DNA from: a virus
Length of the DNA: 64,000 nucleotides
Reading direction: 5' to 3' (one strand)
IMG/VR virus record: IMGVR_UViG_3300021964_007043
A model generated the notes under the pieces. It made no database searches, was not told where the DNA came from, and worked only from the letters and a program-made list of their open reading frames with translations. Made by a program: the position numbers and the translations under genes. Within the stretch, counting starts at the first letter, position 1. Each line of letters starts with the position of its first letter. Shown in pieces: positions 12,390-41,400 of the stretch.

Positions 12390-14614
12390 GCTGTCGTTTT
12401 TGGCTTAGGTGCTACTGTTCCTGGCTTGGCAATACCTGCTTTAGGTTTATTTTGTGCTGCTGGTAATGCTTGAGTACCTTTTGCTCCTGCTTGTTTAGCA
12501 ACTTGAGCATCCTTAGTACCTGCTTTTACACCTTTACTGCTGATTTGATCTAGCACCATTGCCATTACATCTGGTCCTGCTGCTTTGACTGCATCACGTA
12601 CAGGGTCAATCTTAGGATGCGGTAGCCCCATATCTACAGTAGCTTGTACACCAACTGTGCGTCCTGTATCAAGATCAGTGTATAATGCACCTTCCCATCT
12701 GTACTGCTTTCCGTCTTTGCCTTTTACAACATCACCTTTTGCAACTGTTTTAGTTGCTTCAGGTTTGGCTGCGCCGCCACCTTGTGCTGCTGCGGCTTTT
12801 TTGATTGCAGCAATACCTTTTTTGTCATTAGGCTTAACGTTAGTTGGTTTGCCGTCTACACCTGCAATAACATCTTGACCGCTTGCACTTTTTACAACAC
12901 TTCCTGGTTCTGCTGGTGGTGCAGAGTCATCAGCGCCTGCTGCGTTTCCACCTTGTGCTGCTGAATCATCTGCGGGAGTATCTGTAGCAGTTGAAGCTGC
13001 TGGCTCGGCAGCTGGTGTTTCCGGATCACCTACGTTTTTCGCTACAAGTTCTACACCCTGCTCTTGGCCGACAGAGGAAATTTGTTCCGGAGTCATTCCC
13101 ATGCCTTGCAGAATATTTATTATCGAACCTGTGTCAGTTGGTTCGCCTGCTTTCTTCCAAGCACTCATCATTTTATTATAAGTTGCTTTGTTACCTAGTT
13201 CTTTACCTGCTGCTTTAGCACCTTTGGCAATAGCACCCCCGGCTGCTTTAGCACCTTGTGCAACTTTTCCTGCTGCACCTTTGATCATGTCACCAAAGCC
13301 TGCTTCTGCTAGATAGCGATCAAACTCTGATTGCATGTCAACAGATTCTCCTGCTGCTCTCATTATACCAGCTCGACCTTTTAGATCGCTCGGATCAACT
13401 GCTGTTGCTTTGCTGTCTACACCTGCAATCTTTTTATTGCCTGCTGCACTGTCTACAACATCTCCAGGCTTAACTTCGTCGCCGCCGACTTTAAATGCAC
13501 CCTTTTCGCCTTGCGACTGAATACTACCTTGTGCAACTGCTGCAATAGCCTGATTTGCCATTGTTAGGTTTTGTAAGAATGCATCATTCTGTGCTGCAAC
13601 GTTTTGTGCGATTTCATTTGCAAGATTCATATCTGCAATAAACTCTTTTGTATCAAATGATTTTGCAAAGGTCCACAGATCGTTAAATGCATCAATCGCA
13701 CCAGGGTCTGTTGTGCTTCCTGTTGCTGCTGTTGCATCTTTCATAGCATCTAGAAGTGATGTAAACTCTGCAACACGATCTTCAGGAACCACCATTGAAC
13801 CTAATTCTTTAACAGATTCAAATCCAGGCGATGTAAGTTCTTTTGTAAATCCTACTTCAAGTGTAGAAAGTCCTGGTGCTTTATCATATGGAACTGCGTC
13901 AAAGCGCAATCCTTCTAACCAATCACCAATACCTTGTAATGCCCAACCAGCAATAGCACCATAGGCAGCTGTCTTAACTGATTTACCAATAGCACTAGAA
14001 AGATCTTCACCTTTGAGTAACTCATTTGTTGAACGAAGTATTAAACCTGCTGCTGCACCGCCTGCTGGTCCGCCTGCAAAGGCTGCAATAGCTGTTAAGA
14101 TACCAACTGCAATACTTGCCTTGCCAGGATTTGCTTTTGCCCAGTCACTAACTTTAACAATACCTTGTACAATCTTATTGTCTGGTTTGTTTGCCATAAT
14201 ATCTGCTTTAAGATCATTAAACTTTTTGTCCATGTCCTTAACTGGTCCAGCTTCTTTAGCAGCTCTACCAAGTTCTTTAATTTTAGCATCAACTTTTTTA
14301 GCTAGTTCCGCAGTCATCTTAACGCCTGCAACAGCAGCGCCGCCTGCTTTAGCTGCTGCTGAACCTGCTTTACCTAGTGCATTTTGATTAGTGCCACTTG
14401 CCATTGCATTTGCTTCTGCACTTTTAAATATTGCTTGAATTTGATCTGCTGTTAGTTCTGCTTCTGCTAGTTTAACATATTGCTCTAGCAATGGAAATAG
14501 TTCACGTTCCCATCTTAACTGATACTTTTGTTGTGCTTCAGTAAGATCGTGCCAACCTTCTTTTAGTATTCTATGTGAACGATTTTCGTATAGTGTTACT
14601 TCTTGTAGTTTCAT
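12386..14614 (-). CDS. A/G/K-rich 742-aa protein, candidate internal head or ejection protein
   Basis: Low complexity; LKE-G and LAE-A motifs; hydrophobic segment ASIAVGILTAIAAFAGGPAGGAAAGLIL. Confidence 0.6.
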   Translation of the reverse strand: MKLQEVTLYENRSHRILKEGWHDLTEAQQKYQLRWERELFPLLEQYVKLAEAELTADQIQAIFKSAEANAMASGTNQNALGKAGSAAAKAGGAAVAGVKMTAELAKKVDAKIKELGRAAKEAGPVKDMDKKFNDLKADIMANKPDNKIVQGIVKVSDWAKANPGKASIAVGILTAIAAFAGGPAGGAAAGLILRSTNELLKGEDLSSAIGKSVKTAAYGAIAGWALQGIGDWLEGLRFDAVPYDKAPGLSTLEVGFTKELTSPGFESVKELGSMVVPEDRVAEFTSLLDAMKDATAATGSTTDPGAIDAFNDLWTFAKSFDTKEFIADMNLANEIAQNVAAQNDAFLQNLTMANQAIAAVAQGSIQSQGEKGAFKVGGDEVKPGDVVDSAAGNKKIAGVDSKATAVDPSDLKGRAGIMRAAGESVDMQSEFDRYLAEAGFGDMIKGAAGKVAQGAKAAGGAIAKGAKAAGKELGNKATYNKMMSAWKKAGEPTDTGSIINILQGMGMTPEQISSVGQEQGVELVAKNVGDPETPAAEPAASTATDTPADDSAAQGGNAAGADDSAPPAEPGSVVKSASGQDVIAGVDGKPTNVKPNDKKGIAAIKKAAAAQGGGAAKPEATKTVAKGDVVKGKDGKQYRWEGALYTDLDTGRTVGVQATVDMGLPHPKIDPVRDAVKAAGPDVMAMVLDQISSKGVKAGTKDAQVAKQAGAKGTQALPAAQNKPKAGIAKPGTVAPKPKTTA

Positions 14615-15342
14615 TTTAACATTCCTGCTAGTGCTTGTTTTTCAGTTGCTGATAGTGTGTCTAACATTTTTTGTACGTCTGGTGGTATTTCAGTTGCACC
14701 ACTCGCTGCTTGTTTAGCACCAGCTTGTGCAGCTGGCTTAGCGGCTGCGCCGCCTGCTGCTTTTTGATTTGCAGGAGCTGTTTTGCCACCTTGTGCTGTG
14801 CCTTGAGCATTGCCGCCTGGTGCTAGTGCTGGATCGCCTACAGCCTTTCCACCTGTGCCGCCTTGTTGCTGTCCGCCTTGTTGCTGTCCGCCTTGTTGCT
14901 GTCCGCCTTGTTGCTGTCCGCCTTGTTGCTGTCTGCCAGGAGCGGCTTGTCCGCCTCCGGCTCCTCCACCCTTGCCCATTTGAGCATAACCGTCTTTGGC
15001 CATTTGTGTAATAACATCATACACTTGCTGTTTGTTAAGAGTACCTTGAGGAACCTTTGCTTGATTATAGTTGTAGGTGTTTTGAAGAAAGTTTGCTAAA
15101 TCGTCACCTGTTGCAGTCTTTACATTTTTTTGCTGTGTTCCAAGATACTTGTTAAACTTAGTATAAACATCATTTGCTGTTTTACCAACTTCTGCTTTAC
15201 CTTGCAAGTTAGCCGCAGTATTTTTCATTCCAACAGCACCAGCAAGCCCAGCTCCAACTTTACGTCCTAGCTGTTTTAAAAAACCAGCAGGTGCTTCATC
15301 AATTTGTTTTTGTTCTAGTTCCGATATCTCAGCGATCTTCAT
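14611..15342 (-). CDS. A/G/Q/K-rich protein with GGQQQ repeats (probable start 15342)
   Basis: AAGGA RBS and TAAATA (15371-15376) precede the ATG at 15342 rather than the TTG at 15390; IDE-A motif near the N-terminus. Confidence 0.7.
   Translation of the reverse strand: MKIAEISELEQKQIDEAPAGFLKQLGRKVGAGLAGAVGMKNTAANLQGKAEVGKTANDVYTKFNKYLGTQQKNVKTATGDDLANFLQNTYNYNQAKVPQGTLNKQQVYDVITQMAKDGYAQMGKGGGAGGGQAAPGRQQQGGQQQGGQQQGGQQQGGQQQGGTGGKAVGDPALAPGGNAQGTAQGGKTAPANQKAAGGAAAKPAAQAGAKQAASGATEIPPDVQKMLDTLSATEKQALAGMLK
14858..14932. repeat. Five perfect copies of a 15-bp tandem repeat (CCGCCTTGTTGCTGT) encoding Gly/Gln repeats
   Basis: Read directly from the sequence. Confidence 0.95.
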
Positions 15343-15388
15343 GTCAAACGATTCCTTTGTGATTATAATGTATTTATTTAACTTTTTC

Positions 15389-15497
15389 AATATCTACTTC
15401 GTAGATATTTGTTTTCGCTAACGCTCAAACTATGCACTTCGTTTGTTGATAGAAGTAAATGATATAAAGATCAAATCGTTATTACGAAGTAATAACG
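15389..15497. repeat. Two 9-bp hairpins with C-GAA-G triloops on opposite strands
   Basis: AATATCTAC-TTC-GTAGATATT (15389-15409) and CGTTATTAC-GAA-GTAATAACG (15477-15497); a further ACTTCGT at 15436-15442. Confidence 0.9.
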
Positions 15498-15499
15498 TT

Positions 15500-15920
15500 T
15501 AAGCTTCATGTAGATTGTTTCAGTCAGACGGAACCTGTTACGGTTCCATCTAATCTCAAAACTTCATGTGAGTTCGTCACAGCCGAGACTTGGAAGTAGG
15601 TGTTTTCTGCTGTACAATGGGCTCTGACCTTTCCCAACCTACGTCGACATTGTGTACTATATAGAGTGCATAAGACGCTCTTATGCTTTCTGTATAATAC
15701 ATTACCCGTTGCTTCGTTCCTGTGCATACGGTTTTTATGTACTTTGCAGTTTTTCGACAGCCAACATTCCATCTATGTCAATCAAACACCCTACTACCGG
15801 ATGCCGCTCAACATGTTACGTGTGTTCCTATACGGAAACTTTTTCCACAGCGGTGTTTTCGAACTGGCCCGCCAACCTTAAGTGTTGGATTGTTTTGCCT
15901 TGATGCTATGTTCTAGCAAT
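15500..15920 (-). ncRNA. Candidate large structured ncRNA overlapping and following the GIY-YIG gene 3' end
   Basis: No credible ORF. Many helices: CCAAC/GUUGG, AAACACC/GGUGUUU, CCGCU/AGCGG, GCAUAAGA/UCUUAUGC, GUAGGU/ACCUAC, AGAUGGAACC/GGUUCCGUCU. Confidence 0.55.
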
Positions 15921-16327
15921 GCCTGTTTGAGTTTGTCTGATCCGCCTACTCTAACATTAATGATACCATTGTAGTAATCATCTGTTTCGAGTACACGCCT
16001 ATCAAACTGTTCTCTTGCCTCTATGTAGGACATTTCGCCCCTACCTTTACATAGGTATAATATTTCTCTTGTGAAGTGTTCTGGGCCTAGTGCTTCAACA
16101 TCAGCGTTAAGTCTATCAGATGATCCCCAATAGTCTTTCCAGTCTGATTCTTTGTAGCCTCTGCGTTTGTTCTTTTTGCCTTTAAGTGGTGGCTTTGTGG
16201 TTTTAAACTTTGCTAGTTTCTTGCCTATATACTTTTGCCCAGTCTTTAGATTGGTTATGAGATAAACAAATCCTTCATACTCGTCTGGTATAGTATCGAT
16301 TTGTTTCCCATCATAAGTCCATTGCAT
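15878..16327 (-). CDS. Stand-alone GIY-YIG nuclease (149 aa, catalytic domain only)
   Basis: GFVYLITN...KYIGKK, YWGSS, FTREIL, E..EQF, YYN; late-promoter variant TATAAGTA at 16333-16340. Confidence 0.85.
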   Translation of the reverse strand: MQWTYDGKQIDTIPDEYEGFVYLITNLKTGQKYIGKKLAKFKTTKPPLKGKKNKRRGYKESDWKDYWGSSDRLNADVEALGPEHFTREILYLCKGRGEMSYIEAREQFDRRVLETDDYYNGIINVRVGGSDKLKQALLEHSIKAKQSNT

Positions 16328-16335
16328 GAACTTAC

Positions 16336-16551
16336 TTATAGATTGCCTTTTTTCTGTGCCTCTTTTTTGGTTTGGTGTTTGTTATGTACTTCTTCCATCC
16401 GATCTTTTGCTAAACTACGAATGTCTCTGAGACATTTACGTACATAACGATGTGTGCGTACACTGTTACGTTTTTCAAACTGTTCGTTTGCACGGAAGTA
16501 TTCTAAATATGCCTGTGCTAACTGATCGTGTGTGTCTTCTTGTTCACTCAT
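16336..16551 (-). CDS. Small helical basic protein (71 aa), weak Hc1/histone-H1-like resemblance
   Basis: RYVRKCLRDIRSLAKDR helix; coupled to the gp46-like stop. Confidence 0.5.
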   Translation of the reverse strand: MSEQEDTHDQLAQAYLEYFRANEQFEKRNSVRTHRYVRKCLRDIRSLAKDRMEEVHNKHQTKKEAQKKGNL

Positions 16552-18320
16552 TCTACAATATCTATATCATTTGCGTAACTTGTAAATCCGTTTTCTTTAA
16601 CGACTTTAAGAACATGGTTAACTCTACCTACTAGTTCATCCTTGTGGCTGATCAAATAGATATTTTTATCACGTTCTCTTCCCATTTTCTTAAGAATGCC
16701 TAGTGAGTTTTCAACTCCAGCAGTGTCCATACCTGAATCAATCAACTCATCGATAAACAACAAGTTAATATTTTGGTATAGGCTTTCCCAAACATCACGG
16801 AATGCAAAACTTAGTCCGAGAATCAAGCGGTTGCGTTCACCTCTTGACAAGTTATCAAAGTCTAAGTCCTGTCCTAGTTGGGTAATTTCTACATTTAGAT
16901 CGTTTTGGAATACTACTTGGTGTGGTAAGCCTAGTTTATCAAGGTAATATGTGAGCCTGTTGTTCAAATATGCAAGATTCTGATCAATAATCTTCTTACG
17001 AATGAAACTATCTTTGTTTGTTAGTAGTTTTAATAAAAACTCTTGGTGTTCTTTGAACGAAGTAAGCTCATTTACAGTATCCCATTTGATTTCTTGGATA
17101 GCTGTGTTGTTTAAATCGTCGATTTGTACTTGATAAGGGTCTTCTTCTTGCTGTTTACTTATCAATGTTTGCTTTAAGTTATCTACGTTGTTTCTATGTT
17201 CATATGCTTCTTTTGCTGTTTCATAAAAAGTACTAGGACGACCGTTGATATCGCCGATATCATCCAACCCGTTCATAACTTCTTCTAGTTTTCCAGCAAC
17301 TTCTGTTTGGTATGCCATAGCATCTGTAAGTTCTTTAGTTTTTCGTGCTTCGATTTCTGCTTTTTTGTCGTCATGTAGTGCTTGTCCGCATGTATAACAA
17401 GTAGCATCGTCAAGATTTGCGATGTCTTTTTCAGCCTTTTCTACACTTTTAGTAGCACGTAGTAATGCACTCTCTAATGTGCTTTTTTCTTTATTAAGAG
17501 CCAAAATAGCATTGTTCATTTCTGTCCAGTTTGACAGTTTTTCATGTAGTTCTAGTTCTACATCAATGTCTAGTTGCTCTAATTCTTGTATTTTTTGTTC
17601 TAGTTTATCAACGGTTGACTGTTGTGATGTACGCCAGGCACGTTGTCTACTTACTAGGCTTTCAATAGTTGATTCAATCTTGCTATTTGCAGTTTGTATC
17701 GCATCGATACGCATTGTTTCTTCTGTGATAGCATCTCTTGTTTGTTTAACCTGTTCTTTTAGTAGTTCAGCCTTTTCAGAAAGCAGTGTAATACCTAGCA
17801 ACTGTTCAATAATAGCACGTTGATCGTTTTGTCGCATGCTTAAGAAAGGTTCTGAGTAGGTGTTTAGTGCAACAATGTGCTTAAACATGTCATGACTCAT
17901 GCCTAATAGGTCATTAATGCTTTCTTGTGTCTTACGACTGTCGCCTTGCGACTCGTCTGTAAGTTCTTGCTCATGTTCATCGATAAAGAACTTGAGTACA
18001 TTAGGAGAGCGTCCACGCTCAATCCGATAATCTACTCCATCTTTTTCGAAATGTAGGGTGACCAACATCCCCTTACTATTAGTTTTGTTAATAAGGTTGT
18101 TGCGTTTGATGTTGGTCAGTGCTTGACCGTACAGTGCATAGGATAATGCGTTGATTATCGTAGTTTTGCCTGTACCGTTTCGTGATCCTTGGTCGTCACC
18201 TCCTTGGTCTAAGTTTTCGCCAAGCACTAAAGTGAGCTGTTCACGGTTAAAGTCAACAGCTTGAGTTTGGTTGCCCACACTCATAAAGTTTTTTACGGTT
18301 AAATCTTTGATTCTAATCAT
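16548..18320 (-). CDS. gp46: Recombination endonuclease ATPase subunit (gp46/Rad50/SbcC-like)
   Basis: Walker A NGTGKT, central coiled coil with CYTC hook, signature LSRGE, Walker B LFIDE. Confidence 0.95.
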   Translation of the reverse strand: MIRIKDLTVKNFMSVGNQTQAVDFNREQLTLVLGENLDQGGDDQGSRNGTGKTTIINALSYALYGQALTNIKRNNLINKTNSKGMLVTLHFEKDGVDYRIERGRSPNVLKFFIDEHEQELTDESQGDSRKTQESINDLLGMSHDMFKHIVALNTYSEPFLSMRQNDQRAIIEQLLGITLLSEKAELLKEQVKQTRDAITEETMRIDAIQTANSKIESTIESLVSRQRAWRTSQQSTVDKLEQKIQELEQLDIDVELELHEKLSNWTEMNNAILALNKEKSTLESALLRATKSVEKAEKDIANLDDATCYTCGQALHDDKKAEIEARKTKELTDAMAYQTEVAGKLEEVMNGLDDIGDINGRPSTFYETAKEAYEHRNNVDNLKQTLISKQQEEDPYQVQIDDLNNTAIQEIKWDTVNELTSFKEHQEFLLKLLTNKDSFIRKKIIDQNLAYLNNRLTYYLDKLGLPHQVVFQNDLNVEITQLGQDLDFDNLSRGERNRLILGLSFAFRDVWESLYQNINLLFIDELIDSGMDTAGVENSLGILKKMGRERDKNIYLISHKDELVGRVNHVLKVVKENGFTSYANDIDIVE

Positions 18321-19330
18321 TCTAAACCATTATAGATGTCTAGCAACATCTTCTTGTTAAAGTTTTCAGTGTCAAGTTCTGCGATTTCACTTGCTACAAT
18401 CTGATCGACACTTTCAAACTGTGCAATATCTAAGTCTGTTGAGATTTCTTCAATCTGTTTTTGCGGTATTAGTGTAATTTCTCTACAACCGTACTGACTT
18501 ATAAATGTTTCTTTAAGGAAGTTTGCTTCTTCGTAACTAACTGGCAAGTCAAGTGTAACACGAAGATACATTTTAGGCTTGATTATTTCGTCTGTACGGT
18601 CAAGAAGCTCTGAAAGTTTAACTGTTCTATATTTAGGACAGTTCCACCAGTTCAAGTATTCAGGATCTTTACCATTTTCTTTGTCAAGAATCATCATACC
18701 ACGGTCATCATCCCAAGCATCTGCATAGTTATGTGGGAAAGCGTTACCAATATAATGTATCTTGCCTTGCTTTTGACGTTTGTGGAAGTGTCCTGAGAAC
18801 ACATAGTCTTGGTGTTTAAAGTGTCCAGGTTTTAGATCACCGTGGTCCGGCATCTGCACCATAGCGTTCATGTAGAAACTTGGTAGTTCAAAGTGACCAA
18901 ACAGATACTTGGCTTTGATCTTTTCCATTTTCTTCCATTCGTCACCTACTAGCCACGGAACAAGCGCAACATCATCCTCTACAGTAATCTTATCCACTAC
19001 TGTAATACCTGGAATATGTCTTGCAAACTCAGTTGAACTTACATCACGTTTGTCTTTGTAGTACAAATCATGGTTACCAACAAACATCAAGCATTGTTCA
19101 AACGCTTGTCCGAGCTTTTCCATGCTCCTAATGGTTGCATCCATAGTTGTAAGGTTAAGACTGTTACGGTTGTGATGCCAATCACCGCAAAAAATAGCAG
19201 TTTCGCAGTTATTTTCTTTTGCTTGTTCGATAAACCAATCAATAAACTCTTCACAGTCGTCATTATGCACCCGACTGTTGCCTTTGAGGCCGAAATGGAT
19301 GTCTGTAAACACCGCGGCTTTTTTAAACAA
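18317..19330 (-). CDS. gp47: Recombination endonuclease nuclease subunit (gp47/Mre11/SbcD-like)
   Basis: Metallophosphoesterase motifs DIHFG, GDWHH, GNHD, SGHFH. Confidence 0.95.
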   Translation of the reverse strand: MFKKAAVFTDIHFGLKGNSRVHNDDCEEFIDWFIEQAKENNCETAIFCGDWHHNRNSLNLTTMDATIRSMEKLGQAFEQCLMFVGNHDLYYKDKRDVSSTEFARHIPGITVVDKITVEDDVALVPWLVGDEWKKMEKIKAKYLFGHFELPSFYMNAMVQMPDHGDLKPGHFKHQDYVFSGHFHKRQKQGKIHYIGNAFPHNYADAWDDDRGMMILDKENGKDPEYLNWWNCPKYRTVKLSELLDRTDEIIKPKMYLRVTLDLPVSYEEANFLKETFISQYGCREITLIPQKQIEEISTDLDIAQFESVDQIVASEIAELDTENFNKKMLLDIYNGLE

Positions 19331-19357
19331 AGAATATCCTCCATATATACTTGTTAA

Positions 19358-19386
19358 AGTATACTATGTAATTACACACTTGTCAA
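19358..19386 (-). promoter_or_regulatory. Sigma-70 promoter TTGACA-N17-TATACT for gp47/gp46
   Basis: Near-perfect consensus with a 17-bp spacer. Confidence 0.85.
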
Positions 19387-20232
19387 CTATTTTTTCTCAG
19401 AAAAGACTGAAGCACTTGCTTCTTCGTTTCTCTTAACACTTGCTTCCCATTCTCCTTGGTGCTGTCTAGTGTACGAAGGATTTAGATCATTCATTTCAAG
19501 AATATCGTCTCGAATGTTCTGATTACGCTTTTCAATATTAATAACACGAACAAAACTGTTAGTAACTGCGGCAGTATAATATGCAAATGGGTTTTGCGAT
19601 TTACTTTCGTCAAACTGTAAGCCGATTTGTGCTAACTGTAGTATTGCTTGTCCTCGCATTTCGTCATTATATGTATATCCACGCACATTGCCTCTAGTTG
19701 CATAGCGTTCGCATAGTTTGATCCACATTAATGCAAGATTGTCTGTTGCTTTTCCATGTTCTTTTGAAAAATGTCCGTTTTCCATGCCACCTTCCCAGTG
19801 ACTCTTGCCTACACATACAAGTTCTCCATCATCGTTAAACTTGTAATGTTGAAAGGGGGGAAAGTTTAGTTTAGTTTTAGTATCTGCTACTGTTTTTGGA
19901 TTCTTTTTACGTCCTGGTTCTTCTGGGATATGATCAAAAGTCATAATACGAAAGATTAGTTCTTCTTTAGTAATAGACTTATAGTTTACTTCGCATTCTG
20001 CTTGCTTAACTTTTTCTCCAGCCATGCGTCTTGACTCATAATCTTCCGTGCTAAGGCGTTTTGCTTTGTTTCTCTTTGCTTCTGCTATAGTTCTAATGTT
20101 GATTTTGTCAACACTTTCAAGAATAATGTCATAACTAGCGTAGTCCTTTTCTACATAGCTGTTAAATGTGTTTTTTGATTTGTGTATTTCAGATAAAATG
20201 TCTCGATTATTAAGATAATTTCTTTTTCTCAT
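19387..20232 (-). CDS. gp55: Late transcription sigma factor (gp55-like)
   Basis: Motifs RGYTYNDEMRGQAILQL, FDESKSQNPFAYYTAAVTNSFVRVINIEKR. Confidence 0.9.
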   Translation of the reverse strand: MRKRNYLNNRDILSEIHKSKNTFNSYVEKDYASYDIILESVDKINIRTIAEAKRNKAKRLSTEDYESRRMAGEKVKQAECEVNYKSITKEELIFRIMTFDHIPEEPGRKKNPKTVADTKTKLNFPPFQHYKFNDDGELVCVGKSHWEGGMENGHFSKEHGKATDNLALMWIKLCERYATRGNVRGYTYNDEMRGQAILQLAQIGLQFDESKSQNPFAYYTAAVTNSFVRVINIEKRNQNIRDDILEMNDLNPSYTRQHQGEWEASVKRNEEASASVFSEKK

Positions 20233-31900: not shown

Positions 31901-32483
31901 TAAAATCAATGCAATAAAGTCAATAAGTGACGAAGTCATTTATCATCCAACGAGGTATAAAATATTGTTTGGAACAAAAGCAAAGGAAGATTTGCAAGTT
32001 ATTTTTAAAATAGTAAAAAATCCGGATTTAGTAACTAATAATAACGAACTTAAAGCAGACATTATTAGTGCGATTGATAGATTCTTTGCACTTGAAAACT
32101 GGGACTTTGGAGAAACTTTCTACTTCCAAGAACTTAGTACATATGTTTTATCACAACTAAGTCCAAAACTTGTTAGTTTCTTAATGATACCGAAACAAGA
32201 AACACAAAGTTTTGGTAGTTTATTCCAGATTAAATCAGAACAAGATGAAATACTTATAAGTGGAGCTACTGTAGACGATGTTGAAATTATTGACGAGATA
32301 ACAGCAGCATCATTACAAGCAAGCGGCGCAGTTATACAAAGTTCTGATAATACAAACTATACAGCAATACAAAGTAGTTCTAGTTCTAGAACTACGTATT
32401 CATCAAACACAACTTCTAGTTCATCTAGTTCTAGTTCATCTAGTTCTAGTTCATCTTCAACAGGCGGAGGCTATAGTTACTAA
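28953..32483 (+). CDS. gp6: Baseplate wedge protein (gp6-like), Ser-rich tail
   Basis: SYDFDNLR, DYIESSEFLALIDMIAYLGQNLSFRIDLNARENFLETAERRESILRLA, QNRLITGEDY. Confidence 0.9.
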   Translation: MSSTDRQSRLLVAEDWKRIYQSFRNADFQSYDFDNLRRTMIQYLRQNYPEDFNDYIESSEFLALIDMIAYLGQNLSFRIDLNARENFLETAERRESILRLARMLAYNPRRNQCANGLLKISTVKTTESIFDSNGLNLANTVIKWNDQSNSSYFEQFIKVLNAALPVQNTIGNPLKTATINDIVTQKYRINATNTKQAIYPFSKRIEGSTTRFEVVSVDIQDQSLVEEPPLPGNSLAYVFRDDGQGAASINTGFFCQFRQGKLDEGSFGITNPTPNQAVAIDAQNINDTDIWLYGVDTVGVEVAPWTKIDSVEGNNIIYNNLFQGIKDVFAVNTRVGDRISLIFSDGVFGNLPSGNFKTYYRTSANRSMVVTPSAIGRIDIEIPYQGRNGNLETLFFGLELKTTVSNSSPSETNDEIRTNAPATYYTQNRLITGEDYNIGPLAISQDIIKTKSTNRISAGISRYLDLKDVSGKYSNTDLFSTDGIVYKEEFEEKTKFSFNTQSDIEGIVNNAVEGIISGTYLRNYYLDKFPRNIVSDLSVSWNAATEATNFYTGTVKDIDDAIVQVGSFTANALRYLESGALVKFVPPEGYYFDKNNDLVLGTATTKNSKTYIWTKVVSVVDDGTAIDNNGFGAITVNDDIPQDALLSEIIPKFNRSLNNDVKAQIIDQTFNYNDYALRYDTESREWKLILGENINTASDFAVGKSGDDSGQNLDASWLLRFKTDGQTYEVFYRNLRFVFESDTEIKFFFDSSDKVYDVKTGKTYRDKIDILSINTVQGSTDAYTRDFTWTIQDAYRDIEGYVDNKKIVITYLDSDDDGVVDDPELFDILVDYDNTLVANEDKIVFQERYYTSDGVENYKYFPNTDNTILIVENEAAVAPYSSRTEGQIFYLLEEKVFKKLNKAANNLSLVVEYKAYEGRSNLKFHYSHVADSNYRIDPAVSNIIDTYVLTKSYDTRLRTWLKEENTTKPLPPSNDELYRQFGSKINAIKSISDEVIYHPTRYKILFGTKAKEDLQVIFKIVKNPDLVTNNNELKADIISAIDRFFALENWDFGETFYFQELSTYVLSQLSPKLVSFLMIPKQETQSFGSLFQIKSEQDEILISGATVDDVEIIDEITAASLQASGAVIQSSDNTNYTAIQSSSSSRTTYSSNTTSSSSSSSSSSSSSSSTGGGYSY
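32415..32456 (+). repeat. TCTAGTTCATCTAGT tandem repeat (~2.8 copies) encoding poly-Ser
   Basis: Read directly from the sequence. Confidence 0.85.
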
Positions 32484-35400
32484 TGGCTTTTAATGACGAT
32501 AACGAAACAAATCAGTCTAACTCAAAAATAACAAGTTCAGACTTTTTGCCAAAGTTTTTTAGAACTAATGCTAATAAAAAGTTTTTACAAGCAACATTAG
32601 ACCAACTTATACAACCTGGCGAAGCTGAAAAAATAGAAGGTTATTTTGGCAGAACCAATGCTAAAGCATTTAAGGCTACAGATAACTATATTGAAGATTT
32701 TTCAGACGAAAGAAAAAACTATCAGCTGGAACCTGCGTTAGTTTCGAAAGACGAGTTTGATAATGTTACTTTTTATAAAGATTATAATGATTACGTAAAT
32801 CAACTTAAAGTGTTTGGCGCAGACACTAGAAACCACAGCATTCTTAATAGTCAAGAAACTTATCCTTGGAATCCTAATATTGATTGGGATAAGTTTGTAA
32901 ACTTTAGAGAATATTATTGGTTGCCAAATGGTCCTCAAACTGTTAATGTTAGAGGACAAGCAAAAGAAGTTGTTAGTACATATACCGTAACTACAGTTGA
33001 TGACGACGATAACACATCATATGTTTTTAATGATGGTTTAACAAGGAACCCTACACTTACTCTTTACAGAGGTCAAACGTACCGATTTGAAGTAGATGTT
33101 CCAGGAAACCCTATTGCTTTTGCAATCAGTAGGACTTTTACTCCTGGTGCAGCAATACTTGTTGCTGGCACAGAAGGTATAAGAGCAAATGGTCTATATG
33201 ACGGAACTCTTTACGACGAAGAAGATGCAAACTATGATTTAGGCGAGTTTATTGTTTTACCAAGTGGCGGCAGTGTTACCTTTGAAGAAGATGAAAACGT
33301 AAGCACAATTTATCCAGACGGTATTAGAAAGTTTGGAGAAGAAGGTGAAGAAGTAGCAACAGTATACCTAGAAAAAGGAACAATAGAGCTTACTATTCCG
33401 GAAAATGCTCCAGAAAGATTGTTTTATGTTAGTAAAAATAATATTGATACTAGTGGATATGTAAAAATAGCCGACATTGAAGAAAACACTTTCTTGAATG
33501 TTACAAGTGATATTTTAGGTAAAAAAACATATACTAGTGCCAATGGTATAGAGTTTACTAACGGACTTAAAATAAGATTTCAAGGCGATGTAACTCCAGA
33601 TATATATGAAACTGATAACTGGTATGTAGAAGGTGTCGGATCGAATATTAAACTAATCAATGAAAAAGACTTGATTATTCCAGCAGCATATGCTGAAGAC
33701 AACTTTGTTCCTTTTGATAGAGAAAGTTTTGATACATTACCTTTTAGTAGAGCAAATAGTTATACTGGAACAAAAGATTATCTAGTTATTAACCGTGCAA
33801 GTCAAGATAGAAATGCGTGGAGTAGATATAATAAATGGTTCCACAAAGATGTTATATTAAAAAGTGTAGAATATAACGGAACAGAGAATACAACAGACGA
33901 AAGTTTTAGAGCAAAACGTCCTATTATTGAGTTTGAAGCAGGACTTAAACTTAACAACTATGGAGTCTATGCAAAACAAGATGTTGATTTAATCGATACT
34001 GTAACAACTGATGTGTTTTCAAATATTGAAGGCCAGGTTGGATATAGAGTAGACGGTGTAAGTCTTGCTGATAATATGAGAGTTCTTTTTGTTGCTGATC
34101 CTGATATCTTAGTAAACGGAAAAATTTATATTGTTAAGTTTATAAGAATAGGCAACAAACGTCAAATCAATCTTATAGAAGCAACTGATGCAACACCACA
34201 ATCTTTAGAAACTGTATTAGTTACCAGTGGTAATAAAAACGCAGGTAAAAGTTATTTTTACAATGGATCATCTTGGCAACTTTGCCAAGAAAAAATTGAA
34301 ACTAACCAAGAACCTCTTTTTGATGTATTTGACATTGACAAAAATAGTTTTAGTGATACCCAGACGTATAACTCTTCTACTTTTGTAGGAACTAAACTGT
34401 TTTCTTACAAAAGAGGAACTGGTAGTAATGATACAGAACTAGGATTTCCTTTAAGTTATAGGAATATTAATAATAGTGGAGATATTGTATTTGACTTTAA
34501 TCTTATGTTGGATACATTTACATATGAACAGGATACAGATTTTTTTCAAAAATCTATAAATCCGGGATTTTTGAAAAAGTATAAAAATCTTACTGACTTT
34601 GAATGGGTAAATGGATTATCTAAAACTCCTCAAAAAAGTATCCAAAAAGTTATACGCCAATACGTAGTAGATGAATTTGAAAATCAATCATTTGAAATAG
34701 ATGTGTATAATAATGCGGCCACACTATCTGATCTTGTAGTTAATGTACTTGTTAATAATAAGCTAAGAAAAGATTATATTATTGATCGTACAAATAATAG
34801 TGCATATGTTGTTTTTAACGAAGAACTTTCCGATGGTGATAATGTTATTATAAAAACAAGAAGTTCAGCTAAAAAGAATATAAATGGGTATTATGATTTT
34901 CCAATAAACTTAGAAAGAAATCCGCAAAACGAAGATTTTACAGAGTTTACATTAGGCGAAGTTATTGATCATGTTGATACAATGATCGAAGATTTACGTA
35001 GTTTTGAAGGTGTATATCCTGGAACAAGTAATCTTAGAGATATCGGCGATATAGATGTATACGGAAAGAGATTTGTAAAACATGCAGGTCCTATTAACTT
35101 ATCTTCGTATCATGTAACTAATAAGAACTATAACTTAATTAAAGCTCTTAACTACAGTAGAAGAGAGTATGCTCGTTTTAAAAGAAACTTTATCGAAGTA
35201 TCTACTGGGTTAGGTATAGATACTAATACAAAGCAACATGTTGATTTAATACTTAAAGATCTTAACAAGGATAAGCTAAAAACTGAACCATTTTATTTTA
35301 GTGATACTCTTGCATATCAATCAGCAAACGTTATTGAATATACTATTTTAGATGTTAGAACTAGAAGCTATGCATTATCGCAAGAGTTTAATCTGTTAGA

Positions 35401-38400
35401 TCTTACGAATAAAAGTGTAAATGTTTACTTAAACGGCGAACAACTTATACACGGTGTTGATTATGATTTTAGTAATCCGGGGTTTGTTGATGTATTTGCA
35501 GATTTTTTACAAGAAGGCGATATATTAGAAATATATGAATATGACTCAACAGATGGCAGTTTTATACCTCCTACTCCTACAAAGTTAGGATTATATCCTA
35601 AGTATGCTCCTGCACTTACGTATGATGATACTTTTAGACCTGAAGCAGGCGAAAGACCTGAAGACAATATTGGTTATAAGATTTATGCCCAGTCAGAAGA
35701 AGGATATAATGCTGCTGGAAAAATTGGTTGGTTCTATCCTTTATATACAACTTTACAAGCAGCACAAGATAAAGATTTGTCATTAGGCGGCTCGGGATCT
35801 GCACACAAGCATATGTTTAAAGGCTCAAACATTATATTGTACATGCCTAATACAAATGCAGTTCATGCTGGAGTAGATACTAACGTTTATGATGCATATC
35901 CTGTAGGACAACCTATGGTGAAAGGGCACGACGGAAGTTATGTAAGATGCTTTTATGATTACAGAGACAATCTATTACTAGAACTAGAAAAAAGATTATT
36001 TAATAATATTAAAAATGATTATAATAAAGAAATCCTTAATGTACAGGATTTTATAGGCGGCGAGTTTAGAAATAGTGATTATACTAGAGAAGAAGTAAAC
36101 AGTGTATTGCTAAGAGACTTTGCAGATTGGCTAACAATAGTTAACAATGACTATTCAGATCATTATTTCTATTTGAGACAGGACGAGTTTACTTTTAACT
36201 ATTCTTCTATGAAGTCTTATAATGGAAATACAATGCCAGGATTTTGGAGAGGCATCTATCAACATATTTTTGATACAGATCGTCCTCATACACATCCTTG
36301 GGAAATGTTAGGATTTACAATTAAGCCAACATGGTGGAATGATGTTTATGGACCTGCTCCATATACAGCAGATAACTTAATACTTTGGGAAGATTTACAA
36401 GAAGGCAAAATAGCAGAACCTGGAAATATTAGATATGATAACAAATATACTAGAAAAGATTTGTTACTTCATATTCCAGTAAACTCAGACGGTAGTTTAA
36501 AAACTCCTCTAGAAGCAAATATTCCTGATAACTTTGTTTTAAGACCTACAACTAATAACTTTAGTTTTGGAGATTGGGCACCTGTAGAAAATGCATGGCG
36601 TAGAAGTTCTGAATATCCGTTTGCTGTACTTACTGCAATGGTACTTAATAAACCTGCTGAAACAATAGGCTTAGGTTTTGACATTAGCAGAATACAGCGT
36701 AACTTTGTAGGTCAATACATTTATAATCCTACCAGTAAAACAATTAAACTAGATGATATATTACTACCTAATACAGTACAATCTTCACAACGTGTTATGA
36801 CAGCTGGTCTTGCAAACTATATTTCAAATCTTATATCGAGTAATATCTTGAAAGTGTACGAAGACTACCAAACTGAACTGAAGTCTATAACAAACCAGTT
36901 AGGTCTAAAAATCGGCGGCTTTACTGATAAAAATAAGGTTAAGATTATTCTTGATAGCAGAAGTATTGTAGAAGATCAGAGTCAAAATGGCGTTTTTGTA
37001 CCTGAAGAAAACTACGATGTATTTTTAAACACTAGTTCTCCAACAGACTTGATTACTTACAGTGGATTGATTATAGAAAAAGTTTCAAACGGATTTAACA
37101 TTAGAGGATATAGTAAAGACAATCCTTATTTTGATTATTACTTGCCACTTACAGGAACTAGATCGGTTGATATTACTGTCGGCGGCATCGGCGAAGCTAC
37201 CACGGATTGGGCAAGTAGAAAGATTTTTGCTAAAGGCGAAGTAGCTGAAAACGGAGGAAAGTATTATAGAGTTACTGCTGATTTTACTTCTGGCGCAACA
37301 TTTGATACAGAAAATCTAGCATTATTACCTAAGTTACCTGTTGTAGGCGGAAAAACTGCAAACTTTAAGCGTAACTTTAGTAAACAAAGTATTGAAAGAA
37401 TACCTTACGGTCATAGATTTACAACTAGCCAACAAGTAGTTGATTTTATACTTGGATATGGAGAGCGTTTAAAAGACATTGGTTTTGATTTTAGCTACAC
37501 TATAAACGGACGTCAAATAGATGACTGGAATGACAGTGCTAAAGAGTTTTTATTCTGGACAACACAAGGATGGGCAAGTGGAACATTATTAACTATAAGT
37601 CCTGCTGCTAACCAACTTTATTTTGACAGAGACTATCATGTTGTTGACAGCCTAAGCGACCCATTTTACGGATATACTATATTTGATGAAAACGGCCAAC
37701 CATTAGATTTGAGATTTAATAGTATACTTAGAGATCAAAATAGTTTTGGTATCGAGGTAGTCAATACCGATCACGGATTATATCATGTTGCACTTCCTAT
37801 TGTTCAGAAAGAACATGTTGTATTATTTGATAACAAAACAGTGTTTAACGACATTATATACCAGCCGTCTACAGGCTATAGACAAGAACGTCTAAAAATA
37901 AATGCTTATAGAACTGACAACTGGCAAGGTGGGTTTAATGTTCCAGGATTTATTTTTGATGACGGACAGTACACTTCGTGGTCAGAATATAAAGATTATA
38001 AAATAGGCGACATGGTAAAATATCGCCAGTATTATTATATTGCTACACAAAATATACCTGGTACAAATATTTTTAATGACTCACAATGGTATAGATTAAA
38101 TGAAGAACCAGAAAAGAAACTATTAACAAACTTTGACTACCGAATCAATCAGTTTATGGACTTTTATGATTTAGACAATGCAGGGTTTGACGAAAGTCAA
38201 CAAGAGCTTGCACAGCACTTAGTCGGTTACCAAAAAAGACAGTACCTAGCAAATATTATAAACGATGATGTAAGTCAGTTTAAGTTCTATAATGGGTTCA
38301 TTCAAGATAAAGGTACAATGAATGCTGTAGTAAAACTATTTGACAGTTTATCTGATAACGAAGAAGATAAAGTAAAGCTATACGAAGAATGGGCAGTACA

Positions 38401-41400
38401 GCTTGGTAGATATGGTTCTATCGATAACGAAAAACAAATTGAGTACAAACTTACAGATGATAAGTTAGAAGAAGCCCCTCAAATATTTGAGATTGTAAAC
38501 TCTGATCCTAAAGTTATCGATAAGATTTATAGATTATTACCAGCAGATGTTAACGATAAGCCTGAAGGCTATATTCATGAGTCTGCAATGCCTGTTAAGG
38601 CTGTAAGAGAATATTTGAAAACAGGTGGCTATGTAAACCAGGATCATGTAACCTATATTGCTTATGACAAAGAAGAACTAGCAAATACTGATGTAAACTT
38701 AGTTAAGCTAGGAGATTATATCTGGTTAATAGAAACCGGCGCAGATGATTGGACTGTTTACCAAATAATAGATACAAAGATAAAAGCAATAGACCTAGAA
38801 CCTAACACTGGTGATTTTACAGAAGATAACGATCCGCTTATAGAAATAACACTAGATAAGTGGACAAAAAATAATATACAAGTAGGCGAAATATTTGGAG
38901 TATTAGGTGCTTCATCTTATGAGTTAGAAGGACTTTATGAAGTTCAAAAAGCAGAACTTAACAAAATAAAGTTTGTGTCTACAACTACTCCAACTAACTT
39001 TGAAAATCAAGAGTTAGCTTTAGTAAAACTTAGACCTGTAAGAGTTACAAAATCTTCTGAAATAAATGATGTTGTTAAAGAGTCATTATTAAACGATCAG
39101 CGTTTTTGGGTAGATGATTTTAATAATGGGTCGTGGGCAGTTGTTGAAAATAATCCGGTTTATAGCCAGCGTCAAGTAGTTGCTAATCCAAGTGATTGGG
39201 ATAGTACAGATCAAGAGTTTGGAAAAACTATGGCTGTTACCGCAAATAACAGAACTATGGTTATAGGTGCACCAGGTGACGAAAATGGTAAGATAACAGT
39301 ATATCAAAGACCTAGAGAAAATAGTAACTTTATTGTTAACCAGGAAATAACATTTACTGAAGAAGATAAGTTTGATGTTACTGATAGTAGATTTTCACAA
39401 TCTGTGGATATTTCACCCGACGGAGAATATATTGTTGTAGGTATACCTAATGCCTCTAATGTAAAGACAAAATATAAAGGAGAGTTTAATCCTACTTTGG
39501 GTTATGTTAAAGGAGATATTGTAAAATATAGAGAAAGTTTATGGCAAGCTCTCCGAGAAATACAACCGAAAACTGTTTCCCAAGATTTCTCAACTTTTGA
39601 TAACTATCAAAATATCATCCAAGATCCATCCGTCGATTCAACAAACTTAACATTACTTGTGTCCGGTGATCCGGGATTAGAAAATAACTATGTAGATCAC
39701 TTCTTAGTAAGAGCACCGCTTGATATGTACTTAGGTACAAAATCAAGAAACTTTGAAACAGACGAGTCGGGAGATTTTGTAAGCCTTATTTGGAATCAGC
39801 GCAGTTTTGCATATCCAACACTTGATAACTATCAACCGTTTAACGGAGCATTTCCAAATCTAAATGCTTCTTGGTTAACAAATACATTGCATGAGATTAT
39901 TCATAAAGTAGATGCTGTATTGCAAATACCGACATTTATTGCCCTTCCTGATGTCGGAGATTTTGTAACATCAAACACAGGTAGAGCAGAAGTTGTCTAT
40001 GTTTCTACAGCAGAAGACAGTGCAGTGATATATGTTAAAGAAATAAATGGTATATTTGAAATAACAGGAGAGCTTTTTGTTAACGAAACAGAGTTTATAG
40101 GACTTTATTCATTAGAAGAAACCTTTACTACTAGCGATTTGCTAGGCGGATATTGGGTATTCAAAACTTATAATTCAGATGCAGCACCTGTATCGGGTTG
40201 GGAAAGCGAAATAGTAGATGTTGACGGATTTACGTATAGAAACTTATCAAGTTTTTATGATGTTGGCCAGGGGTTGACAGTTTCAGATGTTATTATTGCT
40301 GCTGAAGAAGGAAGAGCAGTTAGAAGATACTATAATGTTCAAGACGATGTAGGAGAAATAGGTGAATATGTTAACTTAAAAAACAGAGTAAGTTTTATGA
40401 CACAACTGTCCTACACCGGTGATCCAACAGATGCAGACGGCCAAGATGGAACAGAACTAGTCCGTATTACAAATAAATGGGTAGTAAGAGTTGGAAAGCA
40501 ATTTTCAAATGATTTAAGTCCTGGAGATAGTTTTAATCTACAAATATATGATGTCGATGTAGACATTAATTATGATGGAACACTATTATCAGACTCGATA
40601 GTAAACACTGAACAAACTATCTCAGAAATTTGGGATGGATATATCGATTGTGAACTATCTAGGTTTGACGCTTCTGGATTCCCCTTCCAGCCACAAGGAA
40701 GATATTATCATGACGGAACCATTTTACAAACTAGAGATCGAGGCGATGTGATTATTGATGTACAAACAGCAAGTGACGGGTCTGGAGGACTTGCTGTTAG
40801 TGCATTGGCTCCTAATAGTGCTGCCGAAGTAATGTATGTGCAGCGTGATTTTAATAAACTAAGATTATACGTTCGATTACTTGATGAATACACAGAAGCA
40901 GATGGAACTGTTGTATCAGTAAGCGGAACTTTTGAAGAACTTAATAATATTGGAAGGTATGAACTAAAACGGTTAGCCAATGATGATATTAGAGGCAGCG
41001 GCGATGTTGACAGAGTATTTGGAGAAGTCGAGTCTTCTCAAAACGATATAGTTGTAGGAACAAGTGTTGTAGGAAAGTTACTAGTGTTTGAAGCAGATTC
41101 TGATTTTGTAAACTCTAGTAATTCTTGGACAGATACTCCTATATTATCAGACATAGAATATTATTTCTTTAGAGAAGGAATAAATCCTGGTATACCTCTT
41201 GATGAAAATCCGCCTTATAGTTTAAATAAGGATTACCGACAGTTGTTCAATATGCCTGTAGATGAGTTTGGTACTTCAAATGGCTTTGCTAACGAAGGAG
41301 TAATAGCAATATACAGGCGTAAAAATGATTCCACTTATGCTTTACAAAAAACCCTTGCAAGTTTATATTTTAAAGAAGATAGACAGTTTGGGTCTAAAGT

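Follow-up and report, generated by a model that had tools for sequence, protein, structure and literature searches.

A twin-box pseudoknotted RNA beside a SegE-type GIY-YIG nuclease gene in jumbo phages, a candidate RNA-primed replication origin

The Locus and Its Neighbours

The window, a stretch of 64,000 nucleotides, comes from an uncultured T4-like jumbo phage and carries on its minus strand a nuclease gene (16327-15878) followed by a structured RNA (about 15890-15503). Upstream and on the same strand, the list of open reading frames and the family profiles show an operon (16336-20232) with the late sigma factor, gp47 (SbcD-like), gp46 (SbcC-like), and a 71-residue ORF. The cultured gp46 proteins nearest to that of the window belong to PA5oct, Phosso, Atu_ph07, and the GAP32 group. 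The 71-residue helical ORF (16336-16551, minus strand) is conserved after gp46 and kept in resolvase-bearing relatives, and no family match was found for it. Its stop codon is overlapped by TATAAGTA (16340-16333, minus strand), to which the first-pass annotation had drawn attention as a late-promoter variant just upstream of the nuclease gene. The word is present at this place as a candidate variant of the T4-type late promoter, and in 77 of 130 relatives a TAAGTA-like word is found no more than 45 nt from the start. Behind the nuclease, the region without genes extends to 15390 or 15342, that is, about 490-535 nt.

The RNA is present as a single copy in a complete genome of 347 kb, about 5 kb from the main switch of gene orientation, as it is in the window. 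Strand and GC skew followed gene direction, and a clean origin signal was not found in them. Two other features of the window were registered, namely, an ORF of 5190 residues on the plus strand (32483-48055), probably a giant tail or virion protein, and a short Gln/Gly tandem repeat of about five 15-nt units (14900-14975) in the gene downstream of the RNA.

The GIY-YIG Nuclease

By profile, predicted fold, and invariant residues, the gene at 15878-16327 (minus strand) encodes a 149-residue nuclease of the SegE type (phrog_447). Pfam SegE_GIY-YIG (PF19835) matched residues 3-123 with an E value of 4e-35, and a sequence search of the PDB gave no match. The structure model (pLDDT 96.7) was closest to the catalytic domain of I-TevI (Z 8.1, rmsd 2.6 over 82 residues), followed by PD-T4-3, UvrC, and T4 EndoII (Z 5.3 for EndoII), and the basic stretch was modelled as a long β-hairpin with strands at residues 40-45 and 55-60. 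Profile and fold agree with the earlier description of a GIY-YIG catalytic domain with a basic insertion and without a C-terminal DNA-binding domain. Y22, Y33, G35, E103, and N120 were invariant in 103 homologues, among which K37 was nearly invariant and no invariant Arg followed the YIG motif.

The family counts 826 cultured phage records; "NAD synthetase" is a widespread wrong annotation of it. Considering that the family is large, that identity among the 80 closest contigs is 88-96%, and that the gene is single-copy per genome, besides being syntenic, the nuclease appears to behave as a conserved gene and not as a homing endonuclease. A free-standing homing endonuclease was discarded as a candidate also because the 149 residues hold no C-terminal DNA-binding module and the distribution is conserved and syntenic, not patchy or mobile. 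In relatives (L415, L304, L365, and L430, and also GAP32, PA5oct, and Phosso) the slot after gp46 is occupied by a GIY-YIG nuclease, a RusA-like resolvase, or EndoVII. The presence of resolvases in the same slot hints that the GIY-YIG protein may cut branched DNA.

The AGGC Leader

The word AGGC(A) forms a cluster of 11 copies between 15897 and 16361, all on the sense (minus) strand, with first bases at 16361, 16348, 16226, 16181, 16160, 16088, 16020, 16000, 15947, 15924, and 15900, the last word lying 12 nt before the first helix of the RNA. Nine copies were observed within the nuclease gene against 2.3 expected, a number reached in 0 of 20000 synonymous resamplings; among the 31 other genes only the adjacent 71-residue ORF was enriched. 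Over 117 marine loci the mean was 7.8 against 1.9, and in 42 diverse genes AGGC was the top 4-mer. The word is also enriched in most of the unrelated ORFs that are inserted at this place, 3-4 copies are found in the noncoding leader where the RNA has its own promoter, and in 117 of 134 loci one copy stands 9-15 nt before the first helix. Five of six nuclease homologues that lack the RNA had AGGC at background level, the sixth having 56% G+C. Taken together, these distributions indicate that the leader belongs to the RNA locus and not to the protein.

A spacing of 23-24 nt between the words was only apparent, as it reflects shared codon positions, and a literature search for AGGCA as a primase site gave nothing. 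It was also observed that the nuclease mRNA (15900-16340, minus strand) folds better than its shuffles (z -4.4).

Structure and Covariation of the RNA

In a shuffle test the fold of the RNA region gave z -3.7 on the minus strand and z -1.5 on the plus strand, and homologues of the RNA were found in more than 100 viral contigs. A model was built from mutual information and pair counts with 43 sequences of less than 80% mutual identity. The resulting RNA, here called type A (about 390 nt, 15503-15890, minus strand), has 12 helices and is triply pseudoknotted, and 98.6% of the cells are paired in the 43 homologues. Two-sided changes occurred at 23 of 58 pairs and in 231 cells; shuffles gave 67 such cells and slid controls no more than 24. 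By these counts the RNA is real.

The 5′ domain (15761-15888), which is exchangeable among phages (L157, L159, and L434 carry others), is closed by a helix between 15888-15883 and 15766-15761 that is 99.6% paired with three covarying pairs; within it covariation supports 15872-69/15853-50, 15848-46/15822-20, 15839-37/15826-24, and 15814-08/15781-75. The middle part (15612-15742) is spanned by a pseudoknot, 15742-15738/15616-15612, in which all five pairs covary, and contains a helix with an invariant loop (15731-28/15709-06) and a variable arm (about 15702-15652), both placed by mutual information and covariation. An invariant core (15523-15642) follows, with helices 15642-37/15601-596 and 15636-33/15621-18 and a hairpin at 15547-42/15535-30. 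The core is 97-100% paired with almost no variation, so its helices are weakly tested by covariation, and two further pseudoknots that we propose for it, 15720-17/15595-92 and 15628-23/15528-23, are compatible with the data. A near-invariant self-complementary hexamer, GUCGAC (about 15648-15643, minus strand), may be a dimer contact; in the type P RNAs described below a different palindromic hexamer lies at a similar place.

The 5′ boundary near 15890 is unchanged behind ORFs of 60-105 residues that are inserted after the nuclease. These ORFs are of several kinds (L062, L095, L097, L101, L104, L119, L137, L138, L158, and L176) and are mostly AGGC-rich.

All the helices that the first-pass annotation had drawn can be written in this one sequence, and four of them were not conserved in relatives. 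Close relatives have lost the structure (15918-15904) that was said to begin inside the last codons, and the RNA starts at about 15890 whatever ORF precedes it. The hairpin around the stop codon is paired in only 82%, its bases 15888-15883 being engaged in the long-range helix with 15766-15761. AAACACC/GGUGUUU (39-59% paired) and CCGCU/AGCGG (61%) are not conserved, nor can one nest in the other, since they share bases 15853-15852. The GCAUAAGA/UCUUAUGC helix is the tip of a dispensable variable arm that is absent in about half of the rows. The 3′ hairpin holds in relatives, and so does GUAGGU/ACCUAC (99.6% paired); the UGGGAA/UUCCAA stem of the suggested pseudoknot has one position that is never paired, and there is better support for other pseudoknots. 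An alternative pairing of GUAGGU with the region of box 2 was also tried and dropped, as it had no two-sided change and in L185 GUAGGU follows ACCUAC.

The RNA had been taken for one outside the known families. Rfam, including group I and II introns, RNase P, and small ribozymes, gave no match to it at E≤5 over 13000-19000, and neither type A nor type P RNAs matched cultured phages by blastn. A group I or II intron was discarded, considering that the RNA is intergenic, that its flanking genes vary, and that Rfam did not match; likenesses to RNase P P4, group I P7, and the hammerhead core had no Rfam support and the wrong order of elements. Type A is a large, uncatalogued family of pseudoknotted RNA with invariant motifs, and this stands even if the reading as an origin, given below, fails.

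Twin Boxes and Downstream Hairpins

The aligned loci show the same heptamer, ACAUGAA, at two places of the RNA (minus strand). Box 1 (15563-15569) follows an invariant CUC and box 2 (15505-15511), 58 nt after box 1, follows an invariant AUCU. Twin-box loci were chosen at 6 of 7 matches, one near miss being left out as a chance match, and the two boxes were equal in 306 of 312 loci, with more than 15 box variants. At each position, 124-126 of 126 clustered representatives agreed between boxes, compared with 59-124 expected from column composition, and single-base changes shared by both boxes were seen at six of the seven positions. A co-varying complement of the box was not found within -2.5/+1.5 kb in 18 loci, and one near the start codon of the nuclease was rejected because it is not conserved across box variants. 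Neither does the box track the sequence of the nuclease, as 331 nuclease pairs of at least 90% identity have different boxes.

Two words that change together without a complement on the same strand are most simply explained if one of them pairs with the strand complementary to the other. As the boxes change together and no complementary partner is seen on the RNA strand, we infer that box 1 may pair with the template DNA of box 2. A wobble test of this direction of pairing was weak, with five G/A and two A/T mismatches inside the 7-mer; position 8 was explained by ancestry, and one GAP32-type RNA (see below) has the opposite mismatch. An RNA-DNA hybrid of 7-9 bp is short.

The partner of a box could also be a copy of the other one. 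Co-changing direct repeats would suit annealing between a copy of one box and the other box, as in template-jumping synthesis of the DRT2, DRT10, or retron kind, in which the RNA would be a ribozyme or a template and the boxes sites of splicing, circularisation, or jumping, and the invariant, ribozyme-like core with variable peripheral arms would agree with this. However, a search for reverse transcriptase (PF00078), which could supply a cDNA partner, found none in four RNA-bearing genomes (one of them complete) or in the small phages described below, and retrons and DRT systems were discarded for want of a linked one. Besides, neither group I or II introns nor RNase P nor small ribozymes match the RNA, and tandem box-to-box units were not seen. 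We consider this explanation highly improbable.

Within 120 nt after box 2 lie several hairpins and an A+T-rich spacer. A hairpin scan of the window gave a 9-bp hairpin with a GAA loop on the template strand (15477-15497, plus strand). The A+T-rich spacer (15430-15476) is a candidate unwinding element by its composition. It is followed on the sense (minus) strand by a GC-GNNA-GC mini-hairpin (15424-15417) and by a 9-bp C-GAA-G hairpin (15409-15389), both with loops of the DNA type. The 64-kb window has two 9-bp C-GAA-G hairpins only, both at this locus. Counts of four-base loops on the sense strand were GTTA 38, GATA 35, and GTAA 21, against 3 on the antisense strand. GTTA and GATA, the commonest, are not GNRA loops of RNA, and they suit sheared G-A pairs in DNA. 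From their sequences, the downstream hairpins appear to be of the DNA type and strand-polarised.

The same elements could be read as parts of a large noncoding RNA that acts freely in trans, as scaffold, sponge, or regulator in the manner of GOLLD, ROOL, or OLE, with boxes and AGGC words as protein sites and hairpins that end transcription or serve the next gene. Its size and complexity, and its own promoter and leader in several phages, are consistent with this; two molecules could be joined through the invariant self-complementary hexamer at about 15648-15643, and the A-rich context of AGGC suits single-stranded RNA binding. Degenerate protein binding, however, does not demand paired single-base changes at six of seven positions of the boxes, and the downstream loops are of the DNA type and strand-polarised. 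We regard a trans-acting RNA as unlikely, although it deserves some weight.

RNA Families and Their Relation to the Nuclease

In freshwater, homologues of the nuclease precede either a type A RNA or other RNAs (type P), and some type P RNAs match Polynucleobacter-1 (RF01718) with 85-118 bits. The RNA of the window is not a member of RF01718, as the 141-nt model had no hit in 13000-19000 at E≤5. All RNA types end in the same manner, with CUC-box, hairpin, and AUCU-box. The layout CUC-box/hairpin/UCU-box with equal boxes 48-68 nt apart, the GNA/GNNA hairpins, and the same nuclease family are found together, so that type A appears, from these sequences, to be part of a twin-box superfamily that includes Polynucleobacter-1.

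Weinberg et al. (2010) described Polynucleobacter-1 behind a single gene family and did not see it in cultured phages (PMC2864571); that paper mentions neither the twin box nor a function. We found no other paper mentioning it, an orphan since 2010. The raw alignments of PMC2864571 show the C terminus of the nuclease and the same 3′ layout as type A, and loci L217, L226, L236, L241, and L271 have CUC-box, hairpin, and AUCU-box and then GNNA/GNA hairpins, like type A. The motif differs in the 5′ part, since RF01718 covers 141 nt that are absent from type A, whose 5′ domain and core are of another kind.

In 238 of 259 loci the nuclease is found upstream of the RNA, at no more than 1.2 kb. Among the others are loci with longer insertions, loci with a RusA-like resolvase in the same slot, and loci with unrelated genes and an own promoter. 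The frequency of this arrangement, together with a minimal nuclease that has a basic hairpin and no DNA-binding domain and with the adjacency of both in reverse order in small phages, would suit an obligate ribonucleoprotein in which the GIY-YIG protein gets its scaffold or its target specificity from the RNA, as had been proposed for this locus by likeness to TnpB and IscB. Against it, RNA and nuclease are separable. L278 and L279 have identical nucleases followed by a type P and a type A RNA, respectively, and in general nucleases of 99-100% identity precede unrelated RNA types and different boxes. The RNA occurs without the nuclease, the GAP32-type RNA lies beside EndoVII, and the nuclease occurs without a large gap behind it in Melnitz, S-SRM01, phiN3, P-HM1, ACP17, and a Felixounavirus; in several marine lineages it is inverted beside gp46 and the twin box was not detected. 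A conserved-to-variable boundary, as a guide would have, is missing: conserved elements flank both ends, the ends are without insertion-site variation, and the variable parts are self-paired arms.

Considering this separability and the lack of a variable end, an obligate role of the RNA as guide or scaffold of the nuclease is unlikely on the loci compared, and the obligate particle as a whole seems to us very improbable. From the earlier proposal there stands the ornate, uncatalogued RNA, with covariation and no Rfam match, and not its service to the nuclease. The nuclease may still have a looser and optional part at the locus, given that small phages carry it and the RNA side by side in reverse order.

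L421/G005, at first sight an RNA without nuclease in a complete genome, was a chance pattern match, and chance matches also dominated a 15-mer scan of prokaryote genomes. The one true match, L458, is a phage-like MAG contig binned as Crocinitomicaceae that carries a nuclease-RNA locus; it may be a mis-binned phage or a hint of the host.

Counterparts in Cultured Jumbo Phages

Cultured jumbo phages have a gap of 0.7-1 kb free of genes in this slot, adjoining a resolvase gene; in PA5oct, Phosso, and GAP32 it lies after gp46 and before the baseplate hub. The gap of GAP32 is conserved in 72 records. An alignment of seven copies (GAP32, fHe-Yen9-04, BF, 7t3, 121Q, XaC1, and CMSTMSU) had two-sided changes at 38 of 87 predicted pairs, a sigma-70-like -10 box, a hairpin like that of type P, and downstream GAA/GTA hairpins. 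Its twin words also change together, being CGTCAG in three phages and CGTCAA in four. Rfam gave no match to this RNA either, and from its position and layout, blastn against cultured phages being without a match, we infer that it is homologous to type A.

The GAP32-type RNA (L682:7651-8456, also L683-L688) is an unannotated conserved RNA of about 570 nt over which some records annotate short spurious ORFs, and blastn matches it at 4-5 places per genome, so parts of it recur elsewhere. Phosso has a structured gap (L680:8410-9425) between a Holliday-junction resolvase and RNase HI, in which a 9-bp hairpin at 9097 has its GAA loop on the template strand, and PA5oct has a structured gap free of genes in the same slot (L679:8867-9531). 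The four noncoding RNAs reported for PA5oct lie elsewhere than this gap (PMC7318152). No mapped origin was found in the literature for this clade of jumbo phages.

Small Phages That Carry the RNA

Two complete siphovirus-like genomes, G011 (31,398 bp) and G016 (31,125 bp, with direct terminal repeats), carry an RNA with 77-80% identity to its counterparts in jumbo phages from fresh water. Their genes are siphovirus-like head, tail, and terminase genes, a methyltransferase, and small ORFs, and the nuclease stands downstream of the RNA. The RNA forms a separate transcription unit, with a terminator on one side and a late promoter on the other, within the sole nonstructural module. Helicase, primase, polymerase, initiator, integrase, and sigma factor were not recognised in a scan that excluded four large ORFs of G016, and an initiator hidden among the small ORFs is possible; a PHROG match to a DNA helicase proved to be the methyltransferase. 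TAAATA stands before most genes that have a gap in front of them, and G016 has a full late promoter ahead of the RNA. Two further relatives, L116 and L124, have the RNA and no nuclease in the 8 kb examined. In all, this freshwater group of about 31 kb comprises G011 (L593-L594), G016 (L677-L678), L600, L601, L422, L116, L124, and L412; it has T4-type late promoters, its replication, integration, and sigma genes were not recognised, and no description of it was found in the literature. By their gene content, the small phages may be satellites of jumbo phages, having borrowed what a genome without replication genes needs in cis.

The locus could also be a cis site for packaging or for recombination-dependent initiation, at which a nuclease (GIY-YIG, RusA-like, or EndoVII) together with gp46/47 would make ends for terminase or strand invasion. 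It is consistent with this that the slot always adjoins a nuclease or resolvase and gp46/47, that it has a late promoter, that few genes separate it from the terminase genes in the small phages, and that many contigs end inside the RNA. The small phages, however, encode their own terminase and capsid and need no helper packaging site, the contig ends are also explained by conserved mosaic sequence common to co-occurring phages, and the termini of G003 and G016 are elsewhere. We consider a site of this kind quite unlikely, somewhat more so than the trans-acting RNA, which in turn leaves unexplained why phages without replication genes keep the hairpins too.

A Possible Origin of Replication

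The small phages are the strongest circumstantial argument for an origin, and at the same time the best hint that the nuclease is useful near the RNA. Since phages without recognisable replication genes carry the same RNA, we propose, with about even confidence, that the locus is a ColE1-like, RNA-primed replication origin of jumbo phages of the PA5oct/GAP32/Atu_ph07 kind. An RNA-primed origin beside gp46/47 had been the second idea of the first-pass annotation. Transcription, from an own promoter in the small phages, would run through the AGGC-rich leader and the structured RNA, and the knotted scaffold, whose fold is shown by covariation, would present box 1. Box 1 would then pair with the template DNA of box 2 and anchor a persistent RNA-DNA hybrid. 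The A+T-rich stretch would open, the hairpins at its edges, on both strands, would load helicase or primase, and the 3′ end of the RNA, or a cut in the hybrid, would prime synthesis. The AGGC words might be binding or priming sites of some factor, read as RNA or as single-stranded DNA. The GIY-YIG protein, a conserved neighbour of gp46/47 that the RNA does not require, may process branched DNA at the origin. Firing from a late promoter would be out of the ordinary for an origin.

A broader proposal, which we put forward tentatively and hold to be doubtful, is that the jumbo clade starts replication with a pseudoknotted RNA of 350-570 nt that uses a self-guide of 7-9 nt onto its own DNA. The RNA types would be swappable replicon cassettes, and the 31-kb satellites would have captured the origin and the minimal GIY-YIG gene to use the replication and late-transcription machinery of the jumbo phage, while the nuclease may cut a branched RNA-DNA structure to make the primer. 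If the reading as an origin holds, a very abundant family of aquatic RNAs would gain a function, a natural RNA would be seen to target its own DNA with no Cas-like protein, and the small phages would point to a new kind of jumbo-phage satellite. The counterparts in the cultured phages 121Q, PBECO4, GAP32, BF, and fHe-Yen9-04 make the origin reading testable.

Comparison with Known Systems

In the catalytic domains of I-TevI and T4 EndoII the same fold and the same catalytic Tyr, Gly, Glu, and Asn are found as in the nuclease, whose activity is predicted. I-TevI has an Arg helix where the nuclease has Lys37 and the basic hairpin, and the nuclease lacks a DNA-binding module; unlike homing endonucleases, it is about 90% conserved and syntenic. 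With the OMEGA systems (IscB-ωRNA/HEARO, TnpB-reRNA) the locus shares a compact nuclease gene abutting a large structured RNA. It has GIY-YIG only, without RuvC/HNH, transposon ends, variable guide, or one-to-one pairing of RNA and protein. GOLLD, ROOL, and OLE have in common with type A the size class, the pseudoknots, and the association with phages; in type A, unlike in them, boxes, DNA hairpins, and AGGC leader form a constant setting in cis, and Rfam did not match it.

The G-runs of ColE1 lie about 250 nt apart. A search for homology to RNA II or its antisense RNA I at the locus found none (no Rfam hit), and plus-strand sigma-70-like sites for an antisense RNA I were two, weak, and at chance level. 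In ColE1 a persistent hybrid forms between an rG stretch of RNA II and a dC stretch of the template, RNase H generates the primer, and helicase is loaded on the displaced strand, while oriF and oriG of T4 are R-loop origins (PMC4412123, PMC5043065). Read as an origin, the locus would share with these systems a long structured transcript and putative signals downstream on the displaced strand, and one relative has an RNase H gene nearby. It also has an upstream RNA word equal to a downstream one, with whose template strand it could pair. It differs from ColE1 in having a mixed-sequence 7-mer 58 nt apart in place of G-runs and in belonging to a phage and not to a plasmid, and from the T4 origins in that the twin-box RNA is far more ornate.
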